From contig CAWHWX010000001.1 in NCBI GenBank assembly GCA_963833125.1, forward strand, positions 32,001 to 96,000: a DNA stretch of 64,000 bases, given 5' to 3'. The stretch comes from Candidatus Bathyarchaeota archaeon. GTDB lineage: Archaea; Thermoproteota; Bathyarchaeia; 40CM-2-53-6. Both the position numbers and the translations under genes were made by a program. This document shows, piece after piece, positions 1 through 28,730 of the stretch; the first letter of the stretch is position 1; each line of letters opens with the position of its first letter. Under the pieces are notes generated by a model that was not told where the DNA came from, searched no databases, and worked only from the letters and a program-made list of their open reading frames with translations.

Positions 1-1365
1 TCGCGATGGCATCAATTACGCCGGAACCGCATATTCCTCTAGGTTTCGCTTCGCCTATAGTGCTGTACTCCGCCTCTAGGGTAGTAGGGTCTACCCATAC
101 TCTTTCGATGGCTCCGACCTCAGCTCGCATCCCATGTTTGAGCTGTGCTCCCTTCAAATGCAGGGCCAGATGGTGAGGAGCAGGCAATCATTCGTTTCTC
201 ATTTCCTAGAACTATTTCAGTGTTCGTGCCGATATCAACAAGGAGTTCCAGATTAGGCGACGTGTGTATTTGGGTCGCCAGGACGTCAGCGACGGCATCT
301 GCACCGACGAAGCCAGCTACGTTGGGAAGAGCGTCAAGGAGGCAGCCCCGAATTGGCAATGATTCCCACTTCACTCGCATAGGTCCTAAAGGGCGCACAG
401 AGAGCGGGCGTGTACGGAGCTAGCGCCACGTACTTTGGCGACGATGCCTAGAAAGATGTAATGCATTGCCCGTATTGCCAACGATTCTTGACCACCTGGA
501 AGACCTCTTAAGGTTCAACGCGCAAGGCCTGTGCACAACACTCCTGAATAAGCGAGTTTGTCGCTTGAACGACTTTCCCTTGCAATTCGATAAGTTCGTT
601 AGGTCCATTCGAAACGTATGAGATTAGAGAGATTACATCGCCCGCAGAATGCGACCTGCGGATTTGGTCATGGAAGCGTTGGCTACGACGATTCCCGAAG
701 TCAGGTGGATTAAATCATCCCCGGCTAATTTTGTCGTTCCTATGTCTACGGCAAAACTCGTAAACCAGTCAGTCAGTTCGCCCTGCGTCAATCCAGGTGA
801 TGAGTCTGTCCCCAGATACGGTAACCGTGACGTCCCATTCGCCTTTACGGATGGCCTACTGGCAGCTGCTTGAGGGCCGCATATCCAAGCTGCAATCCTG
901 GAAGAGCACACTCCACCTGCATGACTTCGATAACTCTCTCAAAGTCACCTCTGAAATCTCTTAGCGAGGCCCGGCAGTTTGATGAAGTGTTTTTGGACAA
1001 TCGGCGACAAGTCGACTTTCGGTTGGATTCCAGCGACTAGGAGCTGATGCGCTTCGGTGAGACTTTCAGGCGGGATATGAACGGTGATTGGAGCAGCGGC
1101 AGTAATCTTGGCGCAACATGCAATCCTAAATCCTTGTTCAATGTCCTGCCCAGAGAGTGACATTCGCTCCAGGTCCGTTATTGGCGATACGTTCTCTGAT
1201 CCCGATGACACCTCAACTCGACACTTGCCGCACACGCCTCGCCCCGCACAGACGTTTGAGACCTGGAGTTGGGCTGCAAGTGCAGCGTCAAGCAGTGTTC
1301 TGCCCATCGCCACCTTCACGGTGTCGTTCTTGCGCCGGAAATTCTACCTCGGCTTCTGGTGCCAT
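1..1365 (-). CDS. ASKHA-domain corrinoid reactivation ATPase (RACo/RamA-like) with N-terminal 2Fe-2S domain; split by several frameshifts and truncated at the window edge
   Basis: Fragments: 945..1319 has CAGRGVCGKC...RIAC (2Fe-2S); 633..911 has AVDIGTT; 120..398 has LPNVAGFVGAD...LLVDIGTNTEIVLG...GPAFEG; GICGSGVID on the minus strand near position 30; ATG at 1365. Confidence 0.9.
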
Positions 1366-1506
1366 TGATTCTGTAGTCACTTATCCAACTAGTTCAACTC
1401 GAATCCTGTTAAGAGCATTTCGAAGTTTCGTTGGAACCCTATCCTCGATTCGACCCTGAGAATTGCGGAGCCTAGAGACGATTAGACGGCTTCATAGCAT
1501 TATTAT

Positions 1507-2572
1507 TTATTTACTATGCAATTTCCGGGCGGGCATTCTTATTTCTTCAATCGAACGGTTTTGTATTTTCTTGGATTGTTTATCGAGTTTCAGAGGCGGT
1601 GCGTTTTCTTGTAGAGCCTTCACTGCCTGTATGAATGTCTTGATACTGTCTGTAGGTGTTGATGAAGGTAAATTGCACCCAAAGCTTGCAACTAAGTTTT
1701 CAGTTCCACCTCCGGCCGTTAGCATCTGTGTGACGTTTGTCCGAATCGTTTCAGGTTTCTCAACTGACAGATTAGTCGGAGAATAATTTCCAAAAACCAA
1801 CACATCACTTGGCACTGCTTTAATGGCGTCAGAGAGTGAGACGGTCTGGTCGATACTAATCGCCGCCACGCCCGTTTCACCCATTTGTTTAAGGAGATGG
1901 TTCACGCGCCCACAAATGTGTAAGATGATGTCTGTGGAAACTGCCTCCGCCACAAGACTTAGTGGGGTTTTGGCGAACTGCTCAAAGTGGCGCGGCGAAA
2001 TCAGGCTCGACGACATGTCTGCCATCACAAGAAAATCCACCCCCGAGTCTCCTAGGCGTTTAGCATAATCAACCACAGTTTCGGTGCAGTCCGCAATCAA
2101 TTTCGAAATTACAGCTTCGGAGCGTAGAAGCCCTAGCAACAATTGCTGAACGCCAAGAATCTGGCTAACTAACGTAAATGGGCCTGTCACAAAGAAACCT
2201 GTGGGAACATCCTTCACTTGCTGTGAAATCTGCTTTGCCGCCTCGACCATCGATGACATTCTGTCGGTGCGCATCTGATGCAGTGATGCTGTGACGCTGT
2301 CGAGGGGCACATACGTCCTGATCTCCGGCGGGTCATAGTCGCTGAATAAGGGATTGAGACCGTATGACTCAGCTTCAACTGTTAGGTCCATGAGAGAGAT
2401 AACCGCATCAGGTTCGAATTGTCGAAGATTACTCCGAACTAGTTCAGCGTGAAGCCTAGGGTCATGGAGGCATTGCTGCGCAGTTAACCCTCCCGTTTTG
2501 AGGCCCGCGATACCCCAAGATTGGAACAACGCCGAACCGATCTAACGAGCTGAAATAATCACGCAGCGTCAT
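1507..2572 (-). CDS. mtaA: MtaA/CmuA-like methylcobamide methyltransferase (URO-D family); N-terminal frameshift
   Basis: DLTVEAESYG, GPFTL, Zn motif HICG plus C-terminal GCNLP; adjacent to mtaB; likely start MTLRDY at 2572. Confidence 0.8.
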
Positions 2573-2590
2573 ACTCGCTTCGCCGTCATG

Positions 2591-4004
2591 TCAGATATTC
2601 AGCCCATATTCCTCTGGGACAAACGTTTGGCCCCAATTTTTCTTGATCTCCGGCTCTAACTCTTCGGGGGTTTCAGGCATTGATGCAAGCGCCTTCTCAA
2701 TTCGAGCCAACCATTTGCTTTCTGCAGCACTTGTCGAAAGCAAATTCTTGTTGGTGGCATCTCGCATTGTGCTGCATGCGGAATTGGCCGCCTTCAAAGT
2801 TCGTGCGTAGTCGTCCGATTCACTCACTATAGCCTTAGCTAATGGGAAGCAGATGTCCGGGTCGAGAAAGAGAGCTTGTGGATCCCTATAATGGTCGGAT
2901 TCAATTAGCAGATTCCGAAGAATTTTCGACTGCCGAAGATCGTGCGCGGTGTTCATGAGGCGACAGTCGTAGATAAGCATCTCAGTGCACACCTCGGGCG
3001 CCTGGCCCCCTAACAGCCTGACATTCTGGACCGACTCATTGGTCCAAAGGTCACAGACCGCGGACGCAATATTCCCCAAAGGTGAAGAATGCGCGCAGGC
3101 AGCAGACTTTCCCTCCATAGCAATCGGTACTCCTGCAATGATTTTCATTACGGGGTTCTCGTAACCGCAATCCTCCCCGGGACCAACAGCTCCTTCCTCA
3201 AACGCACATAACGTCCTCACGGCCGACACTGCTCGCACAAACGCCGCCAACACACGTGGGATGTAGTTCTGATGTGCGAGCTGCATGGCAGTGTTGGCGA
3301 ACACGCAGGCTGAGTCTCCACCGCCTAAAATGTTGTGTCTCGTGGTAATGTCGGTGACGTGACGCCAAAGATATCTCATGTCGCTGCAGGCGAGAACGCC
3401 TAGACTGTAAAGAATCGCAGTCACGTCCCCGCGCATTATGGCCTTGTCGAAAAGTTCCTTACCCCCAGTGCTCTCGATAGATAGAATATCGGCGCCTGAT
3501 GCGGCGCACTTTTCCATTGACTCCATAATCTTCTTGAAGCCTTCCCCCGTCCGCATTCTGGGTGGCCGCTCTGCTTCCCTCACATCGGCCACCGTAACTC
3601 GAAGCGCTGACATCAAACCATGCTTCCTGTGCGCTTCTTCGATAATCGATTTCATCTGCCGTGTAATTTCTGCGCCCCACTCCGGATGAGTTGTCAATTC
3701 GTAAAGGTGCTCAAACTCCAAAGCTAATGCAGGACAACCCAGCTGCGTTGCCTTCGCTAGTACCCCTTTTGACATCTCTTGGTACTGATGTTGGACCTCG
3801 TTCCAAGTAGAGGGTCCAATTGACATTGTAGGCAGCGTGAAGTCAACTTCAGGTAAAACCGTCCCTCCACCTATGGTCAACCCAAACCCTGCGCTGGACT
3901 GGGTTTGGAGCCACACCGAAGATGATGTCGTCCGGGGAGTCATATGACAAGCTACGGAAGCGTCGCTTAGGCTCTCGCGACTCCTTAGCCGCCGGAACTT
4001 GCAA
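2591..4004 (-). CDS. mtaB: Methanol:corrinoid methyltransferase subunit B (MtaB family); frameshift near 3890
   Basis: SIESTGGKE, GDSACVFANTA, DCGYE, EGKSAACAHSS, WTNESVQ; the MtaB-like N-terminus SLSYDSPDDIIFGVAPNPV lies in another frame. Confidence 0.92.
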
Positions 4005-4273
4005 ATCGCATCGAGTCTCAAATCCAACCCGGTCACTAATAGCAAGCGCGTATGCAACCTACTTTTGCCAACAAGTTAACCAGCCTGCGCACTCCGACTG
4101 TCTCGATCATGGGCTACTTATCTAACGACAACTTTGAGATGAGCAGCAATGGATTTGCAGAATCCCCATTATGTAATGGTGGCATATTGCAGAAGTCGAG
4201 AGCATAGTCAGTGGACGTTGTGGTCGAAAATGACCATGCGGGCTATCCAGCACAAAGCTTCGACTGCTTTTTC

Positions 4274-4930
4274 TCAGTCGATCTCCAGAGATTTCATAGC
4301 TCTAGAAACGGCCGTGACGGCGTCCGGCGCGGAATCATCGGCACCAATCTCGTGCGCCCACTCTTGGGTAACTGGTGCTCCACCAACCATAATCTTCAGG
4401 CCGGACCGTAACCCTCTTTCAGTGAGCGTCTTGATAACCTCTGCTTGCTTCACCATTGTCGTTGAAAGCAGCGCTGAAAGTCCTAGTATGTTGGGTTTCA
4501 ACTCTTCGACTTTTTTTACGAAGACTTCTGTGTTAACGTCGCAGCCCAGGTCGTAGACCTTGAAACCATTCACCTCAAACATTGTAGCCACAATGGTCTT
4601 TCCGATGTCATGAATATCTCCTTCCACGGTACCAATCACTACGATCCCGACGTATTTCCGCTCCACTTTCGCTTTCCTCAACTCGGGCTCGATCACTTGT
4701 AGACCATTCTTCATGGCCTCGGCCGACATCATCAGATCTGTTAGGTAGGCTTCCTCTTTGCCGAATCTGTCTCCAACAATCATCAAACCCTTGGTTAAGC
4801 CTTCATTGAGTATTCTGACTGGGTCCATTCCAAGACTGACCAGTCTGGTGGTGAGTTCTTTGGATTTGTCAATGTCACCGTCTGTGACTGCCTGAACGAG
4901 TTCCGCAACGAGACCGTTCGTATCCGGCAA
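4274..4930 (-). CDS. mtaC: Methyltransferase corrinoid protein (MtaC/MttC family)
   Basis: Cap domain plus B12 motif GDIHDIGK...SALL...GGAP; upstream of mtaB on the same strand. Confidence 0.9.
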   Translation of the reverse strand: MPDTNGLVAELVQAVTDGDIDKSKELTTRLVSLGMDPVRILNEGLTKGLMIVGDRFGKEEAYLTDLMMSAEAMKNGLQVIEPELRKAKVERKYVGIVVIGTVEGDIHDIGKTIVATMFEVNGFKVYDLGCDVNTEVFVKKVEELKPNILGLSALLSTTMVKQAEVIKTLTERGLRSGLKIMVGGAPVTQEWAHEIGADDSAPDAVTAVSRAMKSLEID

Positions 4931-5113
4931 AGTGTTTCCAGGGACTTATTTCCGACGAGGGTTGATAAACCTGTTTTCCGTCTCGCAGGGTTTGAATCTT
5001 CCTTACCTTGAAATTGTCGATGAGTCAGTCGCCTACTTAGTCGGCAAATCCGATGTGGTAACATGTCGCAAAGTTTTATGGGTGCTTCCAGAAATTGCTC
5101 CTCGGCTAGGAAT

Positions 5114-5760
5114 TTGCGATCTACTGAAGAAATCCTCGAAGACCTCAGAATCGCCGTCGTCAGCTATGACAGAGATCTTGCGATTAGAGTTGCCGAAGAA
5201 GCTCTGAGTTGTGGCATAGATCCCCTAAGGGCGATGGAGGAGGGGCTAGCCAAGGGAATAAAAGAGATTGGCTCCAAATTTGGCACAGAATGTTTCCTGT
5301 CGGATCTGATGATGGCAGCAGACGCCATGAAGGCGGGCGTTACCGTGCTCGAACTCGGGAATGAAAAACGATGAAAAAGAGCGGAGCGTGGGAACAGTGG
5401 TCATTGGAACCGTAAAGGGCGATATACACGATATCGGCAAGAACCTCGTATCAACTATGCTCGGTCAATGGTTTCAAGGTAATGGATCTGGGAGTCGATG
5501 TCCCTTCGGAGGCATTCATCCACAAAGCCGAAGAAGGATCAGCCAACATCATAGCAGTCTCATCTTTGCTATCAACGACCATTGCCTACATGGAAGACTT
5601 GATCCATCTTATGCGAGACCTCGGCTGCAGAGACAAGTACAAAGTTCTCGTTGGCGGAGGACAAGTTACCGAAGAGTTCGCGAAAGAAATAGGCGCAGAT
5701 GGCTACGGAGAAGAAGCGGCACAGGCTCCGGTCATAGCCAAGCAGCTCCTAGGGAAATAG
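5114..5760 (+). CDS. Second corrinoid protein, divergently oriented; two frameshifts
   Basis: ORFs 5063..5374 (cap), 5361.. (GTVKGDIHDIGKNLV) and 5482..5760 (DLGVDVP...SSLLSTT...GGGQV...GADGY) join into one protein. Confidence 0.85.
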
Positions 5761-6012
5761 AACAATTTGTCTGGCAACTACAAACCTCGGTATTCTCCCG
5801 ATTTCGGCATGATCCACGTCTCGGAGAAGAAAGATAATGCAATCTGATACGTCAAGCCACTCAGGTCCAGCTCGGAGCACCTATCCTAAACCACACAGTT
5901 GTGCAGATCTTCCTAGGCATCAATTGATTTCAGCTCAGACTGCGAGTTAGATGAAGGTTAGACTAAATACTATCGTGAACTGAGTAAAATCGCATGGGAG
6001 AATCGGACGCCG

Positions 6013-6977
6013 ATGCTCGATGATCCGGTTCTTGTAAATGATTGGCATGTGGTGGCGTTTTCGAAGATATACAGAAAGATAGAACGTCTGCCGCGTCTCC
6101 TGAGGGAGGACCTTGTTCTATGGCGATGTGGAGGTGAAGTCAAGGCCTGGCAGGATCTGTGCGTTCATCGTGGAACTCGCCTATCTCTAGGCTGGATCAA
6201 GGACCAGACACTCACTTGTTCATATCATGGCTGGACTTACGATGATTCGGGTAAATGCATACGCATACCAGCTCATCCGGATCAAAAACCTCCTCTGACG
6301 GCCAGAGTCAAAACATACCAGGCTAAGGAGCGGTACGGGTTTGTCTGGGTCTGTTTAGGAGAACCGAGGGCGGATATCCCAGAGATTCCTCAGTTGGACA
6401 ACCCGAGCTATACAAAGATCTTCTGCGGTCCATACCGTTACAAAGCTAGCGGTCCTCGTGCGATCGAGAACTTCTTAGACGTTCTGCGCATTTTCCATTT
6501 GTACACGAAGGACTTCTTGGTGACCCAAGGCATCCAGAAATCGCGGATTATGAACCAGTGATCGAACCGAACGGTGTTACGGCCAAATCCATTTCAGTGT
6601 GGCAGCCAGATCCCGATGGCACAGGACAGCCCGCGGTAGTCACCTACACTTATCGTGTGCTACGTCCTTTGACGGCGTATTTGGCGAAGGAGTCTGGGGA
6701 GAACCGGTACACCCTACTTATGATCGTGACGCCTGTGGACGCAGTCGATAGTATCGCATGGATGCTGATTGCGACTAACTACGCTCACGATCAGGTTGAA
6801 CAACTTAGGAGTTTCCAAAATAAAATCGTAAGTCAAGATGTCCCGGTGGTAGAATCTCAGCGGCCCGAACTTCTTCCTCTCGACTTACAAGCTGAGCTGC
6901 ATCTACGATCGGACCGAATGTCTATCGCCTATCGGAAATGGTTGAGAGAGATCGGTCTTACGTTCGGCACCGGGTAA
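6013..6977 (+). CDS. Rieske non-heme iron oxygenase alpha subunit, VanA/NdmA demethylase-like; frameshift near 6485
   Basis: Rieske ligands CVH...CSYH; Fe motif ENFLDV-x-HFPFVH restored across the frameshift; VanA_C-type tail QDVPVVESQRP...DRMSIAYRKWL. Confidence 0.88.
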
Positions 6978-7076
6978 ATCGATTCGATCGCGATCAAGAT
7001 CAGGCTGTTGAAACCGTTCTTAAGAAGATGGCGCGTAAGCAATTGTTCATGCAGTGTTCCGTTACCCGGTTCCTCG

Positions 7077-8924
7077 TCATGACTTTCCCGCGGGTTTTTC
7101 GTCAACCGCTGCAATTATCGGACTGACTATCTTCTGTCTTTCGAGGTCTACCCACCCTTTGTCAGTGATATTGTACCGGCCTGTTTCCCAGCCCCATCCT
7201 GTCAGAGCGCCGGTGAAAAATCCTAGGTGCATGAATGGATGCGTAAGTTTGCACCCCATACCTCTGAGAGACTCTTTCATCGACTTGATTTTTTCTGCCA
7301 TTGTCTGAATGTCTATGTCCGCCATCAGCCCCACAATCGGTAACGGTAAGCTATTCAGGACTTTTCCGTTGGCAACCGCGACCTGTCCGCCATGCATTCG
7401 AGCGATCTCGTTGCCAGCAAAGGCCATGTCATGAGGAGTTGTGCCTATCATCACTATGTTGTGGTGATCATGAGCTACAGTCGTCCCGATTGCTCCCATC
7501 TTAAGGCCGAGATCGGAAGCGAAGCCCGCGTGGATGCGCCCGCTTGCTCTGTGGCGTTCCGCAACAGCAATCAGTACTACGTCGTGCTGGATGCTTGGGA
7601 GAATGATTCCGTTTTTCACTTCCAATACAGCTTCGCCGTTTCTGAATCCTCGAAGCTCCTCATTACTCACAAGAGTTTGGACTCTTACGCTCTTAACGTT
7701 CTTCTTCGTTCGGACCAAGAAGTCAGTTGCCTTTAGCTTTCGTTTCAGCTTGACAGTGTCCGTCAACGTTGGTGTGTACCGAGTCTTAGGGAGGTGCATT
7801 ACCATCGTTCCGTTTTTGGCTACTACCTTGCCCATCGATATTGTTGTGTCAACCTTGAATTCCTCTAATTTACGCACCAAAAGTATGTCTGCGTATCTAC
7901 TGGGCGTGATACTTCCAATGGCATGGTCAATTCGAAATAGTTCAGCTGCGTTCAGAGTACCAATTTGTATCGCGACGACGGGGTCAACCCCTTCCTCGAT
8001 CGCTCTCCTGACGTGATGATCTATATGCCCCCGTTCAGCAATGTCTTCGGCGCTCAAATCATCTGTTGCGAAGCTGATGTGCCGTGATTGTACATGATGC
8101 TCAGTTATCACTTTAGCTTGATTCTTGAGATTTTGCATCCAAACGTTTCCGCCTTCAATGAAGTTGACTCTGATACCGTTCCGTAACATTTCAAGCTCCC
8201 CTTTCGTTGTCCATTCACCTTCATGTGAATAATCGACACCTGCGCAAACACAAGCTGGAATGGTTCGCTGCAGATCTTCAACAATCCCACAAGGTCCGTC
8301 CGTAACTTTTCCCAACTCTCTTGCGCACGCAATTTTGTCTACGATGTCCGCGTTCTTCGAGAGCAGCATGGGCACGCTCAGTTCATCCCACCCGACAGCT
8401 TCTGGCCAAGCTAACATCTTCTTCAGAGCTTCCTTACTGAAATGCCCGCCTACTGTTTCAACCTTTGACGGAGTCATTGGAATCTCGAAGCAAACGCTAA
8501 GCCACTCTTTGAAGGGCAGTCTCCGTGCTTCTTCCACAATCTCTCGTATGCCTCTCAACCCGGCGACTAACCCCACCTCATGCAGATCACACATAACTGA
8601 AGTGGTTCCTCTCGGCAAGACCGCTTCAGCAAAACGAGTCATTGAGAGCATCGTGCTCTCAATGTGTATGTGGGTATCTACGAGACCGGGTACGAGAAAT
8701 GCGCCTTCGGCATCAACGACAACTGTCCCATCTCCCACGCAATGCTTAACATCCCCAATCTTCGCAATCCTGTTACCGGCGACCGCAACACCTCCAGCGT
8801 ATATCTCCCCCGTGCAAACATTCACGATCTGGCCGTTCAATACCACCAAACTAGCCGACCGCTTATCCAAAGCAACATCCATAGCCTGAGAGAGTTCTTC
8901 GAAATTCAAACGGGAGGAACCCAT
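7077..8924 (-). CDS. Adenine deaminase family amidohydrolase, divergent paralog
   Basis: DTHIHIES, DLHE, SHEG, ATDD, VAERH, TVAHDHHN, LPLPIVGLM; canonical EGH replaced by DGP. Confidence 0.85.
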   Translation of the reverse strand: MGSSRLNFEELSQAMDVALDKRSASLVVLNGQIVNVCTGEIYAGGVAVAGNRIAKIGDVKHCVGDGTVVVDAEGAFLVPGLVDTHIHIESTMLSMTRFAEAVLPRGTTSVMCDLHEVGLVAGLRGIREIVEEARRLPFKEWLSVCFEIPMTPSKVETVGGHFSKEALKKMLAWPEAVGWDELSVPMLLSKNADIVDKIACARELGKVTDGPCGIVEDLQRTIPACVCAGVDYSHEGEWTTKGELEMLRNGIRVNFIEGGNVWMQNLKNQAKVITEHHVQSRHISFATDDLSAEDIAERGHIDHHVRRAIEEGVDPVVAIQIGTLNAAELFRIDHAIGSITPSRYADILLVRKLEEFKVDTTISMGKVVAKNGTMVMHLPKTRYTPTLTDTVKLKRKLKATDFLVRTKKNVKSVRVQTLVSNEELRGFRNGEAVLEVKNGIILPSIQHDVVLIAVAERHRASGRIHAGFASDLGLKMGAIGTTVAHDHHNIVMIGTTPHDMAFAGNEIARMHGGQVAVANGKVLNSLPLPIVGLMADIDIQTMAEKIKSMKESLRGMGCKLTHPFMHLGFFTGALTGWGWETGRYNITDKGWVDLERQKIVSPIIAAVDEKPAGKS

Positions 8925-9066
8925 TGAAATCTTCCTTCCTGATCAAATCGCTAGGGGTCAGCCTGTTTCTGACGCTATTTACTGGTTTTCAACTATGCGA
9001 ATCAAAGGTGTGTGAGAGTGGAAATTTGGACCAGATTATGTTAAACGCAAGCGCCCCCAACAACCT

Positions 9067-9136
9067 CATAAGTACATCTTCGGTCGGCTGATAATCAGTC
9101 CTGAACATAAGTACGAAGATGTTAAATTTGCATAAG
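9067..9136. promoter_or_regulatory. Candidate operator region between the divergent deaminase paralog and the APC permease
   Basis: Inverted repeat ACATCTTCG (9074) / CGAAGATGT (9114), palindrome CTGAT-A-ATCAG (9088-9098), three CATAAG copies. Confidence 0.35.
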
Positions 9137-9159
9137 CCGAGCCCTAGTGTGGTAATCTT

Positions 9160-10704
9160 ATGACAAGTCAACCTGCCGCGTTTGTAAGAAAAGCTTCAGG
9201 GTTACGTAGAGACGTTTCCATGTTGGATGTCGTAAGCCTGAATATTGGTAACATGTCAGGCGGCGCAGCCCTCGGAATCATAGGTTTCACAACGGTACTG
9301 CTCTCATCGATGTCTGGGGTAAACTTGGTATACGGCTCGATACTGGCTTGGTGCCTATCAATCCCCGAGATCGTCGTCTACACGATGATGACGACTAGGG
9401 TCAGTCGGACCGGTGGAGACTACGTTTGGGTCTCACGCGTCTACGGCGGATTATTCGGAGGACCACTTTCCTTCATGGGCTACACGCTTGAGACTATGGC
9501 ATATATGGCACTGATCGCGCTCGCCATGGTTTTCGCGATAGGTTCAGTTGGGGTAGCACTTGGATACTCGAACATGCTTCAATTTGCGTTGCCAGGCAAT
9601 ATTCCTGGAGCGAACTTGACGGGACAATTCCTCATTGCCGCACTAATCTTTGCCGCGCTCATAGGCATCAACGTTGTCAAGCCTAAAGTAGGTTTCAAAG
9701 TCGTTGCGGTTACGATAATAATCGCGATAGCGGCAACTTTCGTTGGCATTTTCTCGCTCTTGGCCGCTGGGACGGCGGGAGTGCAGGGTTACATGAGCTT
9801 CCTAAACTCGATTGGCTCCAATACGACGTATACGGCGGTTGCTAATTCGTACACTGGCCCAACCTTCGACTTTAATGCTACCATATTTATGCTCCCATTC
9901 TTCGCCATCTTCGTCTACCCCTGGTTGAACGCAGGACCAGCGGTCGCTTCCGAGATTAAGGGTAAAGGCGCTTTGCGGTACAACGTATTCCTATCATCAG
10001 TAGTAACCCTCATAGTTGTAACTGCGGGATTTGGAGCGATGTATTATGCTGGCGGATTCAACTTCGTGAATGGGGCATTAGGAAATGCGAATCTAGTATT
10101 CAATTGGAGCTTCAACTTCTGGACCCTCGCAATGGGTGTCTCAAGCACCCCTGTAGCTTGGTTCATCGGCTTAGGTTGGATCCTGTGGAACGTCGGCATT
10201 CTAGCATACGCAATAATCGTCCTATCACGATACCTCTTTGCTCAATCATTCGACCGATTCCTGCCCGAGAAGATCTCATACATTAGCCCGAAGTTCGGTT
10301 CGCCAACTGTCGCATTAACCATCAACCTCATAGGCACGGTTGTCTTGATCGGATTAGCCTCGTACTTCTACGGAACTCTAGTTTCACTCTACGGAGCAGT
10401 GATCGCAGCGATGATCTACTTCTTCTTCATAGGAATCGCCGCCGTACGCTATGCAATGAAGAATGAGAAAGGACAATCTAAAGCAATTCTCGCAATCTGC
10501 GGAATCCTGATGGCGATTGTATTTGGATACATCACGTACCAATTCCTCGCATATTCATCGATATGGGGAGGAAATCCAATTGCATACGGTTACGCCGGCG
10601 GCAGCTTCATCGCAGGACTCATAATCTATGTCTGGTCGAAATCATATCATGCCAAACGTGGAATCGACATCACACTCGCATACAAGGAACTACCCCCACT
10701 GTAG
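9160..10704 (+). CDS. APC family permease
   Basis: FVRKASGLRR N-terminus, RTGGDYVWVSR, SRYLFAQSFDRFLP, about 12 TM segments, ELPP C-terminus. Confidence 0.9.
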   Translation: MTSQPAAFVRKASGLRRDVSMLDVVSLNIGNMSGGAALGIIGFTTVLLSSMSGVNLVYGSILAWCLSIPEIVVYTMMTTRVSRTGGDYVWVSRVYGGLFGGPLSFMGYTLETMAYMALIALAMVFAIGSVGVALGYSNMLQFALPGNIPGANLTGQFLIAALIFAALIGINVVKPKVGFKVVAVTIIIAIAATFVGIFSLLAAGTAGVQGYMSFLNSIGSNTTYTAVANSYTGPTFDFNATIFMLPFFAIFVYPWLNAGPAVASEIKGKGALRYNVFLSSVVTLIVVTAGFGAMYYAGGFNFVNGALGNANLVFNWSFNFWTLAMGVSSTPVAWFIGLGWILWNVGILAYAIIVLSRYLFAQSFDRFLPEKISYISPKFGSPTVALTINLIGTVVLIGLASYFYGTLVSLYGAVIAAMIYFFFIGIAAVRYAMKNEKGQSKAILAICGILMAIVFGYITYQFLAYSSIWGGNPIAYGYAGGSFIAGLIIYVWSKSYHAKRGIDITLAYKELPPL

Positions 10705-10922
10705 GTCAGCACTCATTCAGTAACCAACCTCAAATTCCCGTTAAGTCCGCGTCAGTGTCACACCGTGCGGTCCCCAGACTCCCACCAGTCTCCTGGCGGA
10801 AACGAGTCTGTATTAGCATACTCGGCGTTACGCGGATGGAAAATCAAGGATAACCAGTCAAACGTTCAGCTTCAAACCCGAGCATAGTTCATGTGAGACG
10901 TTAGCAAATAGCTGATTCTCAA

Positions 10923-11889
10923 TTATCCGGATGTGAGCTGTGAACTGAGAACTTTCTTGTCTCCGATATTGACGATCGCTCCCCTGAGCACTCCTTCAGG
11001 GTATTCGCTGCCAGGATTAACTACCAAAGTCTTTCCAATCCTGGTAGTTCCTCTAGATTCATGGATATGACCGCATAGGTCTACCAGAGGTTGATATTTT
11101 TCAACCTCGGACGAATTGCAGTGCTCCCAGCACCAATCATGACTGCCTGTCCCTTGTTGATAACGGGCTTCGGTGGATAAACGGATGCGTCCAGTTTCGG
11201 AACCGTATCTAATCCGCAGTCTATTGGAGGTACGTGAATGTTAAACACGCAATTTTCCCTATCCGATACCGAGGAAACCATCTTCTCGGTTGCTGTTTCA
11301 AGTTCTTCCTCAGTATGATCTCGCGGACATTTCCAGGGAGTGGGATTGCTCCACCCCAAGTTCACCATTTCGTGAAGCCCATCAATCTTGAGGACCCTGT
11401 TATCGGCGTTTTTCACATGAGGGGTGTCTCGGACGGCATCGACTATTTCTTGGTAATCATCATTTCCACCCGTCAAATAACACGTCACGCCCAGCTGAGA
11501 GAGGAATGGTTCAGCGGGTTGACCCACTTTGTTAACGTGTCCTTCATCTGGGTCATGAAGACCTTGTCAACTTTCTCCTTGGACGCGTTTAGCTCATCCA
11601 TCTCTGTCTTGCTACAAGGGTATGGGTAGTATCCGCTGTCAGTTATCTCCTGCGCCAAGGCTTTCGCCTCGTCTGGGCTATGTAGGGTTTTTTCGCCAAT
11701 ATAGTCCGCTTTGAACGTCCCGTCTCCATAATCAACGATCGGGACAAGCATCTTACCTGTCATGTCACCCCCCAGAACCAAGACGTCAACTTTGTAGAAT
11801 TTCGCGGCGCTCAATATCTTCTCGTAACATTTGCCAGAACCGTGGAGGTCTGTTGCAAAGAAAATCTTGGTGAACTTCTTGTCAGGCAT
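10923..11889 (-). CDS. Icc-like metallophosphoesterase; two frameshifts
   Basis: ATDLHG, GGDMTG, GGNDD, IHVPP, and CGHIHES...NPGSEY in a third frame ending at TAA 10923. Confidence 0.88.
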
Positions 11890-12074
11890 GTTTGCGCATC
11901 TTCGATGATCGCGTAGTGAACGGGGCGGTACTATAATTTATCTCCCCGAATTCCCGTCTGAGAAGAGCCTTTCGACTCTCTTCAGGCGCCTCGTGGCGAA
12001 GTTTGAATAAATCGAGGGCGAAATCATGAAGGTTCCTTAATTATGGAGACATTCGTGCTTTCGTATGAGAAACT

Positions 12075-13871
12075 ATGTTTGAAATCGACGGCAGGACACG
12101 CTTACATGATGTAACCCGCACGCTCGTAAACACTGCAATGGGTCGCACCAAAGCTGACTTGGTGATACGGAACGGCTCTCTTGTAAGTACAAACTCCGGC
12201 GAAATCATTGAGAATCAAGGAATAGCGATCAAGAACGACAGGATAGCGCTTGTTGGAAATGTGGAAAACACCATTGGACCTGATACTCAAGTAATTGACG
12301 CGCACAGAAAATGGGTTGCTCCAGGATTCATTGACGGTCACGTTCACGTAGAGAGCGCTATGGTCGCAGGGACTGAATTTGCGAGAGCCGTGATACCTCA
12401 CGGTACAACTACGGTTTTCATAGACCCTCACGAAATGGCAAACGTCCTTGGAATGGACGGTGTTCGATTCTTCATAAACGAAGCCCGAGGCCTTCCCCTT
12501 AAGATGCTCATCACATTTCCCTCCTGCGTTCCTGCCGCTCCCGGTTTCGAAACGAGCGGCGCTTCGTTTGGGCCGAAGGAGATTGAGGAGGCGATGAGTT
12601 GGAAGGAAGTCGTGGCCCTTGGCGAGATGATGAATTATCCCGGTGTTTTGGCAGCTGACCCAAACGTACACACGGAAATTGCAGCGACACTGAAGACCGG
12701 GCGGGTAGTGGAAGGTCACGCAGTCGATTTGCTAGACAGAGACCTGGGGGCTTATGCCGCAGCTGGAATAACCTCATGCCACGAATCAACAGAGGAAATT
12801 CAAGCAATCCAAAAACTCAGAAATGGCATGTACGCAATGCTAAGAGAGGCCTCCGGTGCGACAAACGTAGCCAATACAATCAAGGCCGTGACAAGAAAGA
12901 AACTTGATTCTCGCCACGCCTGTTTAGTTACAGACGACCGAGAACCAAGCGACCTGGTGAACGAAGGGCACGTAGATCACGTCATTCGCAGGGCCATTCA
13001 AGAGGGAGTTGACCCGATCGAAGCAATCCAGATGGCCACCCTCAACGTCGCAGAACATTTCGAATGTGCCAGAGAACTTGGGAACATAGCCCCAGCCCGT
13101 TTCGCGGATGTTGTCATTCTCGACAAACTCGAAACGGTCTCCGTAAACACAGTAATCACTGATGGAAAAGTCGTAAGTCACAATGGAAAGCTAACCACAC
13201 ACCTACCGACCCCGACCTACCCACAAGCAGTGATGCAGTCCATGCATCTGAAGCGCCCACCAAGCCTAGAGGATCTGGCTGTGAAGACCAAGACCAAGAA
13301 CGACTCGGTTAGGGTCAGGGCTATTGGAGTTTTGCCGACGAATATTCTCACACGCAACCTGGAGTTAGAAGTTCCTGTGAAAGATGGAAAGGCTTTGGCA
13401 AACCCAAGAGAGGATGTAGCGAAGATAGCTGTCTTTGAGCGACACAGAGGTTCAGGGAATGTGACAGTTGGATTCGTTAACGGGCTTGGGCTAAAGGAGG
13501 GAGCTGTCGCATCGACGGTAGGGCATGATTGCCACAACTTGGTCGTCGCTGGCATGGATGACGCCAGCATGATTGCGGCCGCAAATATCCTAGCTCAAAG
13601 CGGCGGAGGTATGGTCGCGGTTGAGGGTCAAAAATCGCTATCACATCTTCCGCTGCCCATAGCTGGGCTCATGTCGGACAAGTCCGTCGAAACGGTCTCA
13701 AAACAAATGAAGGAACTTAAGGACGCATGGGCAAAATTGGGCTCGAAGCTTCCGTCTCCTACGATCACACTCGCGTTCACTACACTCTCGGTTATTCCGG
13801 AACTAAGAATTACGGATAAGGGTGTCTTAGACACGGTCCACTTCAGATTCGTGAAGCCAATCATTGAATGA
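12075..13871 (+). CDS. ade: Adenine deaminase
   Basis: DGHVHVES, DPHE, LGEMMN, EGHA, CHES, VTDD, HDCHN, IPELRITDKG. Confidence 0.9.
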   Translation: MFEIDGRTRLHDVTRTLVNTAMGRTKADLVIRNGSLVSTNSGEIIENQGIAIKNDRIALVGNVENTIGPDTQVIDAHRKWVAPGFIDGHVHVESAMVAGTEFARAVIPHGTTTVFIDPHEMANVLGMDGVRFFINEARGLPLKMLITFPSCVPAAPGFETSGASFGPKEIEEAMSWKEVVALGEMMNYPGVLAADPNVHTEIAATLKTGRVVEGHAVDLLDRDLGAYAAAGITSCHESTEEIQAIQKLRNGMYAMLREASGATNVANTIKAVTRKKLDSRHACLVTDDREPSDLVNEGHVDHVIRRAIQEGVDPIEAIQMATLNVAEHFECARELGNIAPARFADVVILDKLETVSVNTVITDGKVVSHNGKLTTHLPTPTYPQAVMQSMHLKRPPSLEDLAVKTKTKNDSVRVRAIGVLPTNILTRNLELEVPVKDGKALANPREDVAKIAVFERHRGSGNVTVGFVNGLGLKEGAVASTVGHDCHNLVVAGMDDASMIAAANILAQSGGGMVAVEGQKSLSHLPLPIAGLMSDKSVETVSKQMKELKDAWAKLGSKLPSPTITLAFTTLSVIPELRITDKGVLDTVHFRFVKPIIE

Positions 13872-13930
13872 ACTGAATTCTAGGTGAAATGTGAACCTAT
13901 ATCAGTCATTCTCTCTCTGAGATTTGTGCG

Positions 13931-14991
13931 TTAGTACACAAATTCAGTTTTCAAGCGATCAGTGGACCTGCGGATGGTCTTGCCCTCGAATGCGTCAATC
14001 ATGGCGTGAACGTTGTCGGCTAAGGGGTAGAGGATTGGGCAGTGCATCCGGTGGAGTTGTACTCCTCAACCTTCTTGAGGCAATCTTCTGCGGTTCCGCA
14101 GGCTGTGATTAGTCGAACGAGTTCATCATCTACTAACTGCTTGGCCTTTTCTAAGCCACCCGGTTTGGCGGGCCAACCCCCCAACGCAGACTTCACCTCT
14201 TCAATCAAGGATTCTTTCACACCACTGGCTTTGGCGATGTGGGGTTGCTGGCCCAGATACTGGGCGACGAGCGGTCGCGCGTCATCAATAGCCTTGTCAG
14301 CGTCGTCGTCTAGCGAACAAACAATCAGCTGAGGTCTATCAATAGCCTCGAATCGTCGACCTCTCTTCGCCGCCCCTGCTTTCAGGTGGTCTAAGGCTTG
14401 GCGATTGTAATTCGGAGAGACTAGGTAGTTGAGTAGAAGACCGTCGGCGATCTCGCCAGTTAGTTCAATCATGTCCCAACCAGTCGCACCTATGAAAATT
14501 GGAATTTTACGTGGAGTAGTAGGGTCGCCGTAGACAACGTCTAGTCGTATGTCCCGTACTTTTACGAATTCTCCCTCGAACGTGACGTTCTCCATTTGGA
14601 AGAGGCGTTGGAGAACGGTGACGTATTCTCGCATTGCTTTCAGCGGTTTCTTCCGTTCGATCCCAACCTTTGACGCTAGGGGATCCCACCAAGCACCGAT
14701 TCCAAGCAAGCTTCGACCGTCAGAGAGTTCATCGAGAGTTAGAAAAGACACGGCGGTCAGCGCCACGTTCCGTGTCCAATTATTTATCACCCCAGTTCCC
14801 AGTTTGATTTTATTGGTTACGGCGGCCATAGCCGCTAATGGTGTGAGGGCGTCTCGTGCGAGGCGGGATTCGGCATGCCAGATCGCTTCGAACCCTTTCT
14901 GTTCAGCATACTGAGCGAGCTTCATCTCTTCGCGAATAGTATGCTTGTCCTGAAGGTACAGGGCGACTCTTTGTGCTTTATCCACTAGCAT
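13931..14991 (-). CDS. LLM-class (Mer-like, flavin/F420) oxidoreductase; C-terminal frameshift
   Basis: [42 protein letters not shown]; corrected tail [10 protein letters not shown] ends at 13931. Confidence 0.88.
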
Positions 14992-15448
14992 TAACTCCTC
15001 CCAGCTAACTTACTCTGCGGCATTCTAGGAAACGGATACGAATACATGTTTTGGAACACTGAAACGTCAAGAAATGAGCCGTTTCAACGGCAATATCTGT
15101 TATCGGGACGTTAAGCGGTTTCGTCGTCCTCTAATTCTGAAGCCACTATCCCGAACGGCTTCTAGCTAGAAAGATGTAGATGTGGTAGTCTAGAGGTACA
15201 AAGAAACAGCGTTATTCGGGAGGAAAATTTACCAAACTAGGGAAAAAGAATCTGTTTACCCGGCTCCAATTAGAGAAGCCACCGAGGATCAAAGCTCCGT
15301 TTCGGCAGGGGCAGACCTCGTTAGGAGGCTGTTCGGTGGACGCTACGCTAAAGACCGAAAACAAGTAAGGGAATACGGAACCTAGCTCGATTACCGTTTT
15401 GGCTTCGATTCCACGAAGTGCTAAGGTCTCAGCTTTCGCTTGTTCGGT

Positions 15449-15934
15449 TCACTCAATTTGTGGCTGACGATTAGTGATCGTTCTGGCAAATTCGATTAGC
15501 CCGATCTTTGACTCCAACTGTGCATTGACGTAGAGCGTGGCGACTGCAGATTTTGATTGCTGTAGTTCTCTCAAACGGATTACCTGTAACTCATTGAGCA
15601 TGCAAGTAGTGAAGACATCGCTGCGCCCTTTTGGTCGAATGCCTTCATCGGGTTTATCATAACACTTTGCGAAGGCGAAAAACTGTTGCTGAAGTAAGAT
15701 TTGAACTGTAAATTCGTGAACTCGCCATGCTAGATTCGTAAAGTTAGTTACCGTAAACCAGCCATGTACCATGGGCAAGTAAGTGCCAAGTACAAAGGAC
15801 AACGGGTTGGTGCTTCTGGTGTCAATTAAGACTTCTTTGTCTAGGCGCATTTTGCTATAGTATCGATGCAGAATGACGCTTGGTAATCGTGAAATGATCT
15901 TGTCCGCAGTCGTGAAGGCTAGTTCAGAAATCAA
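15449..15934 (-). CDS. Hypothetical protein
   Basis: 161-aa ORF with protein-like composition; no motif recognised. Confidence 0.55.
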   Translation of the reverse strand: MISELAFTTADKIISRLPSVILHRYYSKMRLDKEVLIDTRSTNPLSFVLGTYLPMVHGWFTVTNFTNLAWRVHEFTVQILLQQQFFAFAKCYDKPDEGIRPKGRSDVFTTCMLNELQVIRLRELQQSKSAVATLYVNAQLESKIGLIEFARTITNRQPQIE

Positions 15935-16054
15935 GTCCGAAATCCCTGGACTCTACTCTTTGCCTGCTAGTTGGCTCATTTTCCATTCACTTCGGTTGCT
16001 TAAGCCCTATGGTATGGAGCATCATTCATCATTCTTAGCGGGTAGGAGTCTCCG

Positions 16055-16351
16055 TTAGCTTATGTATGCTCGATCTTTGTTTCGCTTGAACCATTCAGAT
16101 AAAGTTCTAGCCGCCTCTGGGGACCTCGCCAACACGTAGGTACTCACGGCACTTAGAATTGCCGCCTTTTCGTCATCAGACAGACTATTCCAGAGTGCGG
16201 CGAGTAACCGCATAACGCTTTGCGCTATGTCGATAGGAGCGTAGAAAGGAGCATACGGCAGTGCTTGACGGTTAGCTTGACATGTTCCGCAACCATCGCA
16301 AAACGTCGCATCTTCAGTAAGATTCCGTCTACAAGATTCGCAAATATGCAT
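16055..16351 (-). CDS. Zinc-ribbon small protein
   Basis: CESC-x10-CDGC at the N-terminus, helical C-terminus. Confidence 0.7.
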   Translation of the reverse strand: MHICESCRRNLTEDATFCDGCGTCQANRQALPYAPFYAPIDIAQSVMRLLAALWNSLSDDEKAAILSAVSTYVLARSPEAARTLSEWFKRNKDRAYIS

Positions 16352-16496
16352 GCGAGTCTCTCGCGCGAGAACAACTTAAGATTTCGCGTATCCCAGAATC
16401 TTGAAGTTTGAATGACATACCTCGATTCATAAGAGGAACTGCCCTGCAAATTTTGGCTCATCGTCTTGCGGTGGTTTCGGGGAAGCCTGATCGGGG

Positions 16497-17151
16497 CTAA
16501 CTTGTTGAGTTAAGGATCGATGTAGCGGTGTTAAATTCGTCTGTCGCTTGGTTAACGAAGGCGTTGCCTTCTGTGATCAGCGATGGATTATTTTGGATAA
16601 GCCCGTCTTCGTAAAGCGTAAACGCTGAGTAGCAGAGACTCAAAGCGTTGACGATATGGACATGGGCTTCGGCGAAGTGCTGATGGAGGGTGTAGTCTGA
16701 GGGCGCTTTCCATCAGAACTTTGAGGTTGTCCTTTTGCTGGCTCACGAATGAGATTAAGTCAGTTTGAGACATCTGCCCGTTACTGAACGCACGAAAGTT
16801 ATCTGCGCTCTGAGTCGTTATGTTGTGAAATTCGGAGAATATGGCTGACATTGCGGTTTTGTATTCTGTAACGTTAGCTTCCACCGTGACCATGACTGGC
16901 AGCGTGTACGTGGTCGTCTCCGTTGCAGTTGTCGCCCCGCTATGGGTTGAACCGGCAGCCCCTAGCATACCTCCTATGACGAGTACGATGATTAGCAGAC
17001 CGAGTGTCTTAGCCTGAGATTTTTTCTTGGGAGCAATTGGTTGCTCGACAGTTTTGACGGGTGACGTGGAAGGCGTTGTTGGTGTTCCGCACGATGGACA
17101 GAAGCTCACGTTAGCAGCGAACTGGCTTCCACATTTCGAGCAGAAAGGCAA
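16497..17151 (-). CDS. Zinc-ribbon, single-TM protein with extracellular helical domain; frameshift near 16680
   Basis: CSKC-x10-CPSC, TM helix, Thr-rich linker; the alternative frame FAEAHVHIVNAL... runs to TAG at 16497. Confidence 0.75.
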
Positions 17152-17276
17152 GTCTTTCCCAGGTATGCCTATGCTTCAGTTCGTCGTGCTTAAGATTTTA
17201 CATGCCTTAAGGAATAGATTGTCTTGCATAATGTAAAATATGAATGAGTGGGGTTTTGATCCGAGGTTCAGTCAAA

Positions 17277-18134
17277 ATGCCCTTTTGCCGGAATTGTGGC
17301 GAAGCAACTGCAGTTGGGACGAGATTCTGTCCGAAATGTGGAGCAGACATGTGGAATGCGAACCCATCGCAACCTGCATCTGAACACCGCATCAATCGTA
17401 TGCCTGAACTTATTCTCGGACTGATTGGTGGCGTCTTGGGGCTTCTATTCATACCTGTAATGGTCTTCCTCGGTGCTTTCGGGGAGGCGTTTACTGGAAG
17501 CCCGGGTACTCTTTATGCGCAAGCAGCAGTTGCTGCTCTGATTTCTATCATCGGACTTGTTGCGGCAGTCCTGGTTAAGAGCAAACCCAGAGAGTGGGGC
17601 ATCTGCTTGGTGATTTGTGGAATTATCGGCGTCATAGTTGCTTCAGGCTTCTACGTTGGAGGTCTCTTGCTGCTAGTTGCTGGAATTCTAGCTCTCGTAA
17701 GAAGGGATTCTAAAGAAAGTCAAGACGATCTCTCTTTCTTAACTGAGGAGCAACCTCGGAGAACGGGGTTGAGGGGTTCGTTTCCGCTTGATGAACTCAC
17801 GATTAACAAGGAGGTTTCTAACGTTTCGCCTGGAGTATTTGTTCTCGGGCGCAAGGAGGGCAAGACTTTCTACGTTCGCACCGTCGGTCGGGCTGATGTT
17901 GACGTGAGGACTCGACTCAAGGAACACATTGGCAGATATGACCGGTTTAAGTTCGAATATGCAAATTCACCTGAAGATGCTTTCAGAAAGGAATGTGACT
18001 TGTACCACGACTTCCGGGGACCGGAAGGCAAACTCGACAATGAGAATCATCCTGAGAGACCCCAGGGTGTGGCTTGGCTTTGTACCAAGTGTAACAAGTT
18101 TAGTCCACAAGGTGTTGAGCAAACGACGACCTGA
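17277..18134 (+). CDS. Zinc-ribbon + 4-TM + GIY-YIG-like domain fusion protein
   Basis: CRNC-x10-CPKC; four hydrophobic helices; PGVFVLG...VRTVGRAD...RLKEH...KECDLYH...LDN; terminal CTKC. Confidence 0.7.
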   Translation: MPFCRNCGEATAVGTRFCPKCGADMWNANPSQPASEHRINRMPELILGLIGGVLGLLFIPVMVFLGAFGEAFTGSPGTLYAQAAVAALISIIGLVAAVLVKSKPREWGICLVICGIIGVIVASGFYVGGLLLLVAGILALVRRDSKESQDDLSFLTEEQPRRTGLRGSFPLDELTINKEVSNVSPGVFVLGRKEGKTFYVRTVGRADVDVRTRLKEHIGRYDRFKFEYANSPEDAFRKECDLYHDFRGPEGKLDNENHPERPQGVAWLCTKCNKFSPQGVEQTTT

Positions 18135-18459
18135 TGGAACCGACAACTTGCGAGCATCCGCTCGGGTACGGAGTTAGTCGGGCTTGTATTTGCTCGCTTC
18201 GATAAACCATTCCTTCTCGGACAGGCTCAGTAGGTACGATAAGAGTGCTACCGCTCATATAGTCTGCTTGCGCCGTTTCTGCAAGCCAAGCTAGATGAAT
18301 TTACTCTCGTTTGTCAGGAGTATCCGCTTCGGTTCTAAATTTGTCTCCAACCCCTATAGTTCTCGTGAATTCATAGTTACACTTCATTATGGTCAAGTAG
18401 GCTTTTCGTAAGTCCTCTCTTGTTTCATAAGGGAAAAACGCAACATCGCGATCAGGAAA

Positions 18460-18768
18460 CTACTTGAACAGGACTGGATTGACAGTGCACTCGTCAATCA
18501 CGATATTTTCTCCTCTCATAATCAGTCGCCAATACCGTTGATGAGGTTCAGACTTATGCCAATGCTCAGTTTCAATCATGATGCCACCGCCAATTTCTGC
18601 AACTTTCACGCTGGCAATTATTTGAGTATCATTTCTACACGAGCCATTTCGCCATTGCTTATCTATCTTGAGGGCTAAATCTGCGGTTAATGGTACTTCG
18701 ACCATACCCATGGACTCGCTAGTATACATGATAAAACTAGCGCTTGTCAGGCTCGGCAGCGTTTGCAT
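18460..18768 (-). CDS. Hypothetical protein (frame continues past TAG to 18301)
   Basis: 102-aa ORF; no motif recognised. Confidence 0.45.
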   Translation of the reverse strand: MQTLPSLTSASFIMYTSESMGMVEVPLTADLALKIDKQWRNGSCRNDTQIIASVKVAEIGGGIMIETEHWHKSEPHQRYWRLIMRGENIVIDECTVNPVLFK

Positions 18769-25035: not shown

Positions 25036-25040
25036 AATCG

Positions 25041-28724: not shown

Positions 28725-28730
28725 GAATAG

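Follow-up and report, generated by a model that had tools for sequence, protein, structure and literature searches.

We analyzed a 64,000-nt stretch of contig CAWHWX010000001.1 (C1) from the Candidatus Bathyarchaeota archaeon assembly GCA_963833125.1 (hereafter the window, whose position 1 is C1:32001), concentrating on its first 14,991 nt, where genes for corrinoid-dependent methyl transfer adjoin a Rieske oxygenase gene and two genes of the adenine deaminase family. The genome (G000) is a 3.07-Mb metagenome-assembled genome (MAG) of 39 contigs with 87.8% completeness and 7% contamination; relative genomes are numbered G0xx, and metagenome contigs or loci L0xx or L1xx. A sequence-only reading of this stretch had proposed a locus for the catabolism of methylated purines. 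Using Pfam, NCBIfam and PDB sequence searches together with the open reading frame (ORF) listing, we recovered every gene it had named, confirming the observation, while the interpretation placed on those genes is supported only in part; protein-atlas look-ups returned family-level names only.

Starting from the left edge, the minus strand carries the N-terminal two thirds of the activase RACo (2-1319; RACo_C_ter, Raco_middle and Fer2 domains matched by Pfam on pieces), the gene for which runs beyond the window and continues at C1:31491-32000, an MtaA-like URO-D methylcobamide methyltransferase (MT2; 1507-2529; PF01208, 191 bits), MtaB of the methanol:corrinoid methyltransferase family (2591-4057; PF12176, 518 bits) and an intact first corrinoid protein, MtaC1 (4274-4930; B12-binding and B12-binding_2 domains, DxHxxG motif). 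A second corrinoid protein, MtaC2 (5063-5760; Pfam matches on three pieces), and a Rieske non-heme-iron oxygenase of the SxtT/GxtA-NdmA clade (6013-6977; Rieske and VanA_C domains) follow on the plus strand, and then Ade1, an intact, divergent amidohydrolase of the adenine deaminase family (7077-8924, minus; Adenine_deam_C and Amidohydro_1). Beyond these lie an intact permease of the amino acid/polyamine/organocation (APC) superfamily (9160-10704, plus; AA_permease_2, 54 bits), a calcineurin-fold metallophosphoesterase (~10919-11889, minus; 270 of 324 residues identical to the G002 ortholog), Ade2, an intact canonical adenine deaminase (12075-13871, plus; TIGR01178) and an F420-type luciferase-like oxidoreductase (LLM) resembling Mer (14020-14991, minus; PF00296, 234 bits). 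The two enzymes of the xanthine dehydrogenase (XDH) family that had been placed some 9.5 kb downstream are two XDH/CoxSML-type sets of small, medium and large subunits with ThiS-like genes and XdhC (24559-33241, plus; Pfam), beginning 9.57 kb after the LLM gene. To the left of the window we found a second APC permease, APC' (C1:27318-28868, plus), and a non-pyrrolysine (non-Pyl) homolog of MtmB (C1:28989-30212, minus).

The locus is real, contiguous and composite, made up of a conserved backbone and a 13.6-kb accessory island. In the nearest species (G019 and G016), the backbone follows a pyridoxal phosphate enzyme and consists of a DadD-like deaminase, an unknown 257-aa protein, the APC permease, the phosphoesterase, Ade2, LLM and, 1.3-2.5 kb past LLM, the XDH-type sets, and at this site neither genome has corrinoid genes, a Rieske gene or Ade1. 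The island (C1:27318-40924, or window -4682 to 8924) sits between the 257-aa gene and the backbone APC gene and reads APC' (plus), MtmB-like, RACo, MtaA, MtaB and MtaC1 (all minus), MtaC2 and Rieske (plus) and Ade1 (minus), with the methanol-type operon MtaC1-MtaB-MtaA-RACo nested inside a cassette formed by the other genes. APC' is 88% identical to a G002 permease, and the backbone APC is 88-89% identical to those of G019 and G016. Ade2 is 91-93% identical in these two species and 64-93% across its orthologs in the genus. The proposed linkage of Ade2, LLM and the XDH genes holds well: it is syntenic in four species of the genus, with LLM adjoining Ade2 in G019, G016 and G001. The 9.5-kb spacer between LLM and the XDH-type sets (window 15000-24500; lower GC content, 0.44), missing from these same three genomes, contains zinc-ribbon/DUF4064 membrane proteins and ORFs without a family; a Pfam scan of it found no mobile-element hallmark, and a PHROG search gave two weak membrane-protein matches. 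As to integration signatures, neither window 1-34000 nor the 20 kb on its left was found to contain a tRNA gene.

The conserved cassette numbers five to seven genes, and its core comprises five, namely the second APC permease, the non-Pyl MtmB homolog (the corrinoid-methylating enzyme, MT1), MtaC2, the SxtT/NdmA-like Rieske oxygenase and Ade1, which are kept together through three gene orders. In G002, L045 and L046 the order is phosphoesterase-APC-Ade1-unk258-MtaC2 followed by MtmB-like-Rieske, and in L047 it is Ade1, Rieske-MtaC2, MtmB-like and APC, which is the window order without the MtaB block. MtaC2 adjoins the MtmB-like gene in G002, L045-L048 and L050. With respect to the claimed linkage of an Mta module to purine genes, a corrinoid methyltransferase pair does stay with the Rieske, Ade1, APC and phosphoesterase genes across relatives, but the MtaB-MtaA-RACo operon itself is unlinked. 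G002 has MtaB and RACo on a different contig from Rieske and Ade1, L047 has no MtaB block, and MtaB occurs in only 3 of the 23 genomes of the genus, counting G000, in which the window copy is the only one. We therefore rejected MtaB as a conserved partner of the purine genes; the conserved methyltransferase partner of Rieske and Ade1 is the non-Pyl MtmB homolog with MtaC2, not MtaB. One other genome, G012, has a RACo-MtaC-MtaB-MtaA operon on an 8.4-kb contig beside a non-orthologous XDH-like set; its XDH-like genes are only 35-37% identical to the window sets and represent a different paralog, and this adjacency was not counted as support.

Two artifactual explanations have to be weighed before the gene content is interpreted, one concerning the contig and the other the state of its genes. 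If the contig fused two organisms, as the sequence-only reading itself had considered, the adjacency of corrinoid and purine genes would be false; the 7% contamination of the MAG would be compatible with this, as would a second APC-phosphoesterase-Ade2-LLM copy on its 7.6-kb contig C33 (92% nucleotide identity to window 9084-14969, phosphoesterase intact), although that copy is probably from a co-binned related strain or species. We regard such a fusion as very improbable. Contigs of ~90% identity that another study obtained from a soil run span RACo-MtaA, MtaA-MtaB, MtaB-MtaC1-MtaC2, MtaC2-Rieske, Rieske-Ade1 and phosphoesterase-Ade2, and because these independent contigs cross the same junctions in the same order, a chimeric join is excluded; in addition, the Rieske-Ade1-APC adjacency recurs in G002, L045, L046 and L047, and GC content is even over window 1-16000 (0.48-0.52). 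The other explanation is that the island is decaying. Disruptions were counted by frameshift-aware alignment of the intact orthologs of relatives to the G000 DNA, and five or six of the 11 genes in window 1-14991 proved to be frameshifted in this assembly. RACo has ~14 frameshifts and one in-frame TAA over the whole gene, APC' ~16 frameshifts and one or two stops, and the MtmB-like gene eight frame changes. MtaB has a single frameshift near 3893 that displaces its first ~40 residues, MtaC2 has two or three (~5357 and ~5463), the Rieske gene has one near 6488 within the ENFLDxxHxxxxH iron motif plus a compensated pair, the phosphoesterase has two single-base deletions (11516 and 11109), and Ade1, the backbone APC, Ade2 and LLM have none. 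Farther downstream, the first XDH large subunit has a frameshift near 28173 (one frame change relative to the G016 ortholog).

Read literally, these breaks would make the corrinoid genes, the Rieske gene and the phosphoesterase true pseudogenes of a pathway no longer functional in this organism, a reading to which the in-frame stops in RACo and APC' and the concentration of ~38 disruptions within 6 kb (C1:27.3-33.3 kb), compared to ~1 per 3 kb of coding sequence genome-wide, lend some weight. However, when 256 ORFs (200 aa or longer) called on 400 kb of G016 were compared with G000, 171 had a top match of at least 70% identity, and 48 of these conserved genes (28%) contained at least one frame change, for 67 changes in total (47 of 170 genes and 57 changes without one repeat-protein outlier). 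Among the split genes are rpoB (domain 6; C14:90087-91201), a class-I aminoacyl-tRNA synthetase (C19:78318-79914), COX1, the heme-copper oxidase subunit I (C12:135377-136687), and one XDH large subunit (window 26152-28471). The error density of C1:27.3-33.3 kb is several times the genome average, but similar clusters exist elsewhere, such as the four frame changes packed into 1 kb of C18:36288-37266. Most disruptions are insertions of the +1 type, as with 12 of RACo's 14 frameshifts, and the most-broken genes show no excess of amino-acid divergence, with 88% identity to intact orthologs for APC', 78% for MtmB-like and 70% for RACo, compared to 87% for the intact Ade1 and its G002 ortholog. In public contigs the frame is restored at three sites, by one additional base each at 11109 and 11515/6 and by an indel at 3893/3896. 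Because the breaks are genome-wide, split indispensable genes, come without excess divergence and are mended in public contigs, the frameshifts in about half of the genes are assembly consensus errors, not gene decay; the pseudogene reading, which we consider improbable, was rejected on these grounds. With about a quarter of its conserved genes split by assembly errors, this MAG calls for caution in the use of its gene and pseudogene predictions.

RACo is identical to an intact 624-aa G002 ortholog at 438 of 624 positions, its Fer2, linker, middle and ASKHA C-terminal domains all in order but spread across ~15 frame disruptions, whereas the G002 protein is intact with all four. MtaA is 67% identical to its G012 ortholog and scores below the cut-offs of the NCBIfam MtaA/CmuA models (155.5 versus 244 and 127.4 versus 235.4). 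MtaB matches the intact G012 MtaB at 382 of 475 positions with one frame change and aligns to profile positions 25-460 of the 460 in PF12176, the first ~25 positions being in another frame; the intact G012 ortholog (80% identical) scores 458, below the equivalog cut-off of 720 for NF040651. Translations of both window corrinoid proteins contain the motif GDIHDIGK. MtaC1 exceeds the TIGR02370 cut-off (218.9 versus 215.3), with methylamine/betaine-type corrinoid models as its best NCBIfam matches; MtaC2 is identical at 154 of 237 positions to an intact G002 ortholog that falls just under the same cut-off (198.0). The nested operon resembles Methanosarcina MtaABC with RamA/RACo in combining MtaB, an adjacent DxHxxG corrinoid protein, a URO-D-type MT2 and a RACo-type activase, and differs from it in the sub-threshold equivalog scores of the G012 MtaB ortholog and the window MtaA and in that McrA was not found in G000.

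The MtmB homolog of G002 is an open frame of 455 aa with no in-frame TAG (PF05369, 355.6 bits), and non-Pyl MtmB homologs are present in 57 of 301 sampled Bathyarchaeia genomes. A first role of a non-Pyl MtmB was published in 2026, when MtqB was described as demethylating tetramethylammonium and choline (PMC13044021). Compared by Pfam family and description, MtqB/MtqC of Methanococcoides methylutens Q3c and the pair studied here share the MtmB family without an in-frame TAG, a position beside the cognate corrinoid protein and the need for a separate MT2 and reductive activase. Unlike the MtqB host, G000 is a non-methanogen with an oxidase, and the MtmB-like genes have Ade-family amidohydrolases, a Rieske oxygenase and Bmp-type transporters as neighbors instead of methylamine genes. 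In a separate group of more distant metagenome contigs (L107, L109, L110 and L111), a corrinoid protein gene is directly followed by those of an MtmB homolog and of an MtaB homolog (39-43% identical); L109 and L110 have RACo upstream, and a gene for a Bmp-type binding protein lies 4-5 kb away.

The relationships of the Rieske oxygenase were judged by bit scores to sequences of solved structures, with the intact 321-aa G002 ortholog (identical to the window protein at 231 of 321 positions) as the query. It aligned over its full length with SxtDIOX (268.6 bits), SxtT (263.5), NdmA (156.5) and NdmB (126), other solved oxygenases scoring far lower (32 bits for carnitine oxygenase) and the GbcA model giving 24 bits, so that the NdmA-type assignment made from the sequence was borne out, with SxtDIOX/SxtT as the closest solved relatives ahead of NdmA/NdmB. 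The motifs CVHRG..CSYHG and ENFLDV|AHFPFVH are complete once the frameshift is read through and are intact in G002. Known members of the NdmA/NdmB and SxtT/GxtA groups act on purine-skeleton substrates. The archaeal protein shares with them the CxH...CxxH and DxxHxxxxH motifs, a length of ~320 aa and a VanA_C-type catalytic domain; unlike them, it is archaeal and its gene belongs to no cluster for caffeine or saxitoxin.

Among 401 sampled genomes of the phylum, homologs of this Rieske protein (37-44% identical) occur in a single other family, the distant f50, in which 7 of the 15 genomes have one. Four of these seven loci (L118, L119, L121 and L122) also contain one or two amidohydrolases and a CN-hydrolase or XDH-like gene, with a FAD-binding oxidase and an APC permease each found in three of the four, the same phosphoesterase family in one (L121), and a cyanate lyase and a urease accessory gene in L119. 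This Rieske/APC/phosphoesterase module is without corrinoid genes; over the full length, the phosphoesterase and permease of L121 are 41% and 34% identical to those described here. In G019, the Rieske gene lies between an amidohydrolase and an APC-like permease. From the contexts in f50 and G019 we conclude that the association of Rieske oxygenase, permease, phosphoesterase and amidohydrolase predates the addition of corrinoid genes. The module points to a nitrogen-rich heterocycle or an amidine, not necessarily a purine, and judging by gene content, the f50 loci appear to be an uncharacterised N-heterocycle catabolic module found across archaeal classes. The G019 Rieske ortholog (L018:9442-10319) is itself split into two frames, in this case in the VanA_C domain ~160 bases downstream of the point equivalent to the break in the window.

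The hydrolases and oxidoreductases fit the names first given to them to different degrees. Of the two supposed adenine deaminase paralogs, Ade2 passes the TIGR01178 equivalog cut-off (553.8 versus 472.5), matches the Agrobacterium adenine deaminase Atu4426 (PDB 3nqb) with E = 4.9e-88 and keeps the HxH, E, GH, HE and TDD metal-ligand motifs. Ade1, by contrast, stays below the cut-off (373.5), and DGPCG replaces the GH metal ligand of Ade2 and 3nqb, as it also does in the independent G002 assembly. The Mer-like protein is an F420-type LLM but falls below both Mer cut-offs (NF002619, 200 versus 276; TIGR03555, 188.2 versus 348.7). The two large subunits of the XDH-family enzymes are of XDH type, with pucD/XdhA as their best models and only 250-322 bits for aerobic carbon monoxide dehydrogenase models, yet they do not reach the xanthine dehydrogenase cut-offs (pucD 575.7 and 585.5 versus 783.65). 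Relative to bacterial systems of adenine deaminase and xanthine dehydrogenase, the likeness thus lies in Ade2 and in the small, medium and large XDH subunits with XdhC, syntenic in four species, while the differences are Ade1, the sub-threshold large subunits and the presence of nine large-subunit paralogs in G000.

The phosphoesterase belongs to a large, uncharacterised family with 369 representative clusters at E ≤ 1e-30, in which D16, H18, N145, H221, H277 and H279 are invariant among 42 sequences and the calcineurin metal motifs (DxH, GD, GNH-type and GH) are present. Its AlphaFold model (pLDDT 94.9) gave aq_1956 (1.2e-11) and TT1561 as the best Foldseek matches, followed by a 5'-nucleotidase, the TM values of the matches being 0.36-0.55. 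The model is confidently of calcineurin fold, its nearest solved structures are themselves uncharacterised, and since the matches are generic for this fold, they neither support nor exclude a role on nucleotides. Elsewhere in the genome, a further Ade-family paralog is split into pieces of ~430-520 aa and ~175-200 aa at the same point in three genomes (G000 C1:339123-340854, G016 C1:841631-843359 and G003 C2:355264-356977), and this may be a genuine two-gene form, not an error.

Corrinoid chemistry and an oxygenase in one locus had been read as a contrast between anaerobic and O2-dependent metabolism. Both modules are indeed present, but the contrast is weaker than it was drawn, with a heme-copper oxidase (COX1) encoded in the genome. 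In O2-respiring organisms, the CmuA/CmuB chloromethane dehalogenase of aerobic methylotrophs performs corrinoid methyl transfer, making Co(I) chemistry compatible with aerobic life; this system differs from the present locus in MT1 family and substrate. A published account of Bathyarchaeia from peat presents them as facultatively anaerobic and equipped with an aa3 oxidase (PMC11619403), and since COX1 is present, a Rieske oxygenase is at home in G000. Cytochrome bd, McrA, CdhC and MtrH were not found in this 87.8% complete genome, and methylenetetrahydrofolate reductase (MTHFR) is present; because McrA was not found, coenzyme M is an unlikely methyl acceptor. An F420H2-dependent quinone reductase and a sulfite-oxidase-type molybdoenzyme elsewhere in the window (54665-55168 and 49925-50995) fit an F420-using, respiring lifestyle.

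Neighborhoods of MtmB-like genes outside the cassette provide further indications of the substrate class. In G001, from the same genus, a corrinoid protein, two MtmB-like genes and an LLM directly adjoin the Ade2 ortholog together with a Bmp/PnrA-type ABC transporter and two XDH sets, and G026, which belongs to another family, has Ade-like, Bmp ABC transporter, Ade-like, MtmB-like and corrinoid protein genes in succession. We also collected 71 MtmB-like loci from metagenomes, which reduced to 58 clusters and 26 non-redundant loci of at least 8 kb. Among these 26, a corrinoid protein was found in 23, a Bmp-type binding protein in eight, a DadD-like amidohydrolase in five, Ade in three and an XDH large subunit in two, compared to crude chance expectations from G000 gene densities of 0, 0.7, 0.8 and 1.2 for Bmp, DadD-like, Ade and XDH large subunit, respectively.

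Taken together, the gene content suggests, tentatively and somewhat short of an even case, a cassette for the uptake, corrinoid- or O2-dependent demethylation and hydrolysis of an N-methylated, purine-like heterocycle in a facultatively aerobic peat Bathyarchaeon; the purine itself is a substrate that we infer. An N-methylated, nitrogen-rich heterocycle, the foremost candidate being a methylated purine or nucleobase, would be imported, and the MtmB homolog would pass its methyl group to Co(I) on MtaC2 and MtaA would carry it onward, with RACo re-reducing oxidised cofactor and the nested methanol-type operon thus supplying both MT2 and activase. With O2 present, the Rieske enzyme would instead attack the compound oxidatively. 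Ade1 might then hydrolyse the product, and Ade2 and the XDH-type enzymes could carry adenine-type products further.

Several points weigh against this proposal. MtmB-like and Ade-family genes are neighbors in only 4 of the 26 genomes that have both (G000, G001, G002 and G026), three of them from one genus. A label for a purine-type neighbor within 8 kb required 10 changes on a quick tree of 38 MtmB-like genes, compared to a shuffled mean of 13.0 with 35 of 500 shuffles as low; the label is scattered, and no dedicated purine-linked MtmB clade was found on this tree. As the families are expanded in G000 (six Ade-family genes, five DadD-like genes and nine XDH large subunits) and the baseline is crude, chance proximity is not negligible. 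APC permeases are not known as the usual nucleobase carriers. Without one metal-ligand histidine, Ade1 may not be a deaminase. No NdmD/VanB-type reductase partner was seen in the locus, the rest of the genome not having been searched for one. The partners of the f50 Rieske genes (CN-hydrolase, formamidase, FAD oxidases and cyanate lyase) are equally in keeping with purines and with substrates resembling hydantoin, guanidine or pyrimidine. The fate of the methyl group after MtaA is a further difficulty, with McrA, CdhC and MtrH not found and MTHFR present. Finally, the substrates named for MtqB are choline and tetramethylammonium, not heterocycles (PMC13044021).

These considerations leave a real though lesser-than-even chance that the genes are neighbors without a shared substrate, and that the region is an insertion-prone hot spot housing independent modules: a methanol operon, an MtqB-like system for quaternary amines with APC' as its organocation permease, a Rieske-amidohydrolase-permease-phosphoesterase module acting on a guanidino compound or an N-heterocycle that carries no methyl group, and ordinary adenine salvage and oxidation. 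The island and the 9.5-kb spacer show that the region accepts insertions, the MtaB block is missing from the G002 and L047 cassettes and rare in the genus, the f50 module does without corrinoid genes, and MtmB-like and Ade-family genes lie apart in 22 of the 26 genomes with both. Organocations are among the substrates after which the APC superfamily is named, and the one non-Pyl MtmB characterised according to PMC13044021 uses quaternary amines. Against independent modules stand the recurrence of MtmB-like, MtaC2, Rieske, Ade1 and APC genes together in three different orders, the MtmB-like/corrinoid pairs that G001 and, from another family, G026 have right amid Ade-like and Bmp-type transporter genes, and the far greater proximity of the Rieske enzyme to SxtT/NdmA (157-269 bits) than to carnitine oxygenase (32) or the GbcA model (24).

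A more specific form of the heterocycle-demethylation cassette can be imagined, which we think unlikely but worth stating. Non-Pyl MtmB homologs of Bathyarchaeia might be the corrinoid methyltransferases that act on purines and nucleosides N-methylated in the ring (m7G, m1A and m3A type), which are chemically analogous to quaternary amines because their rings are charged; this facultative aerobe would then have, within a single cassette, both a corrinoid route and a Rieske route of NdmA type for these compounds, feeding demethylated bases to Ade-family deaminases and XDH-type enzymes. If this were true, methylated nucleobases set free as nucleic acids decay would be a methylotrophic substrate not recognised until now. 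Our literature search found no paper linking corrinoid methyltransferases with adenine deaminase or purine genes, nor one bringing together Bathyarchaeia, purine and xanthine dehydrogenase. At the level of the cassette itself, one of the widespread MtmB homologs is tied to an oxygenase of NdmA/SxtT type, a hydrolase of the Ade family, a permease and a phosphoesterase, which yields a short, testable list of candidate substrates and points to a pool of nitrogen-rich heterocycles as food for these abundant peat archaea.

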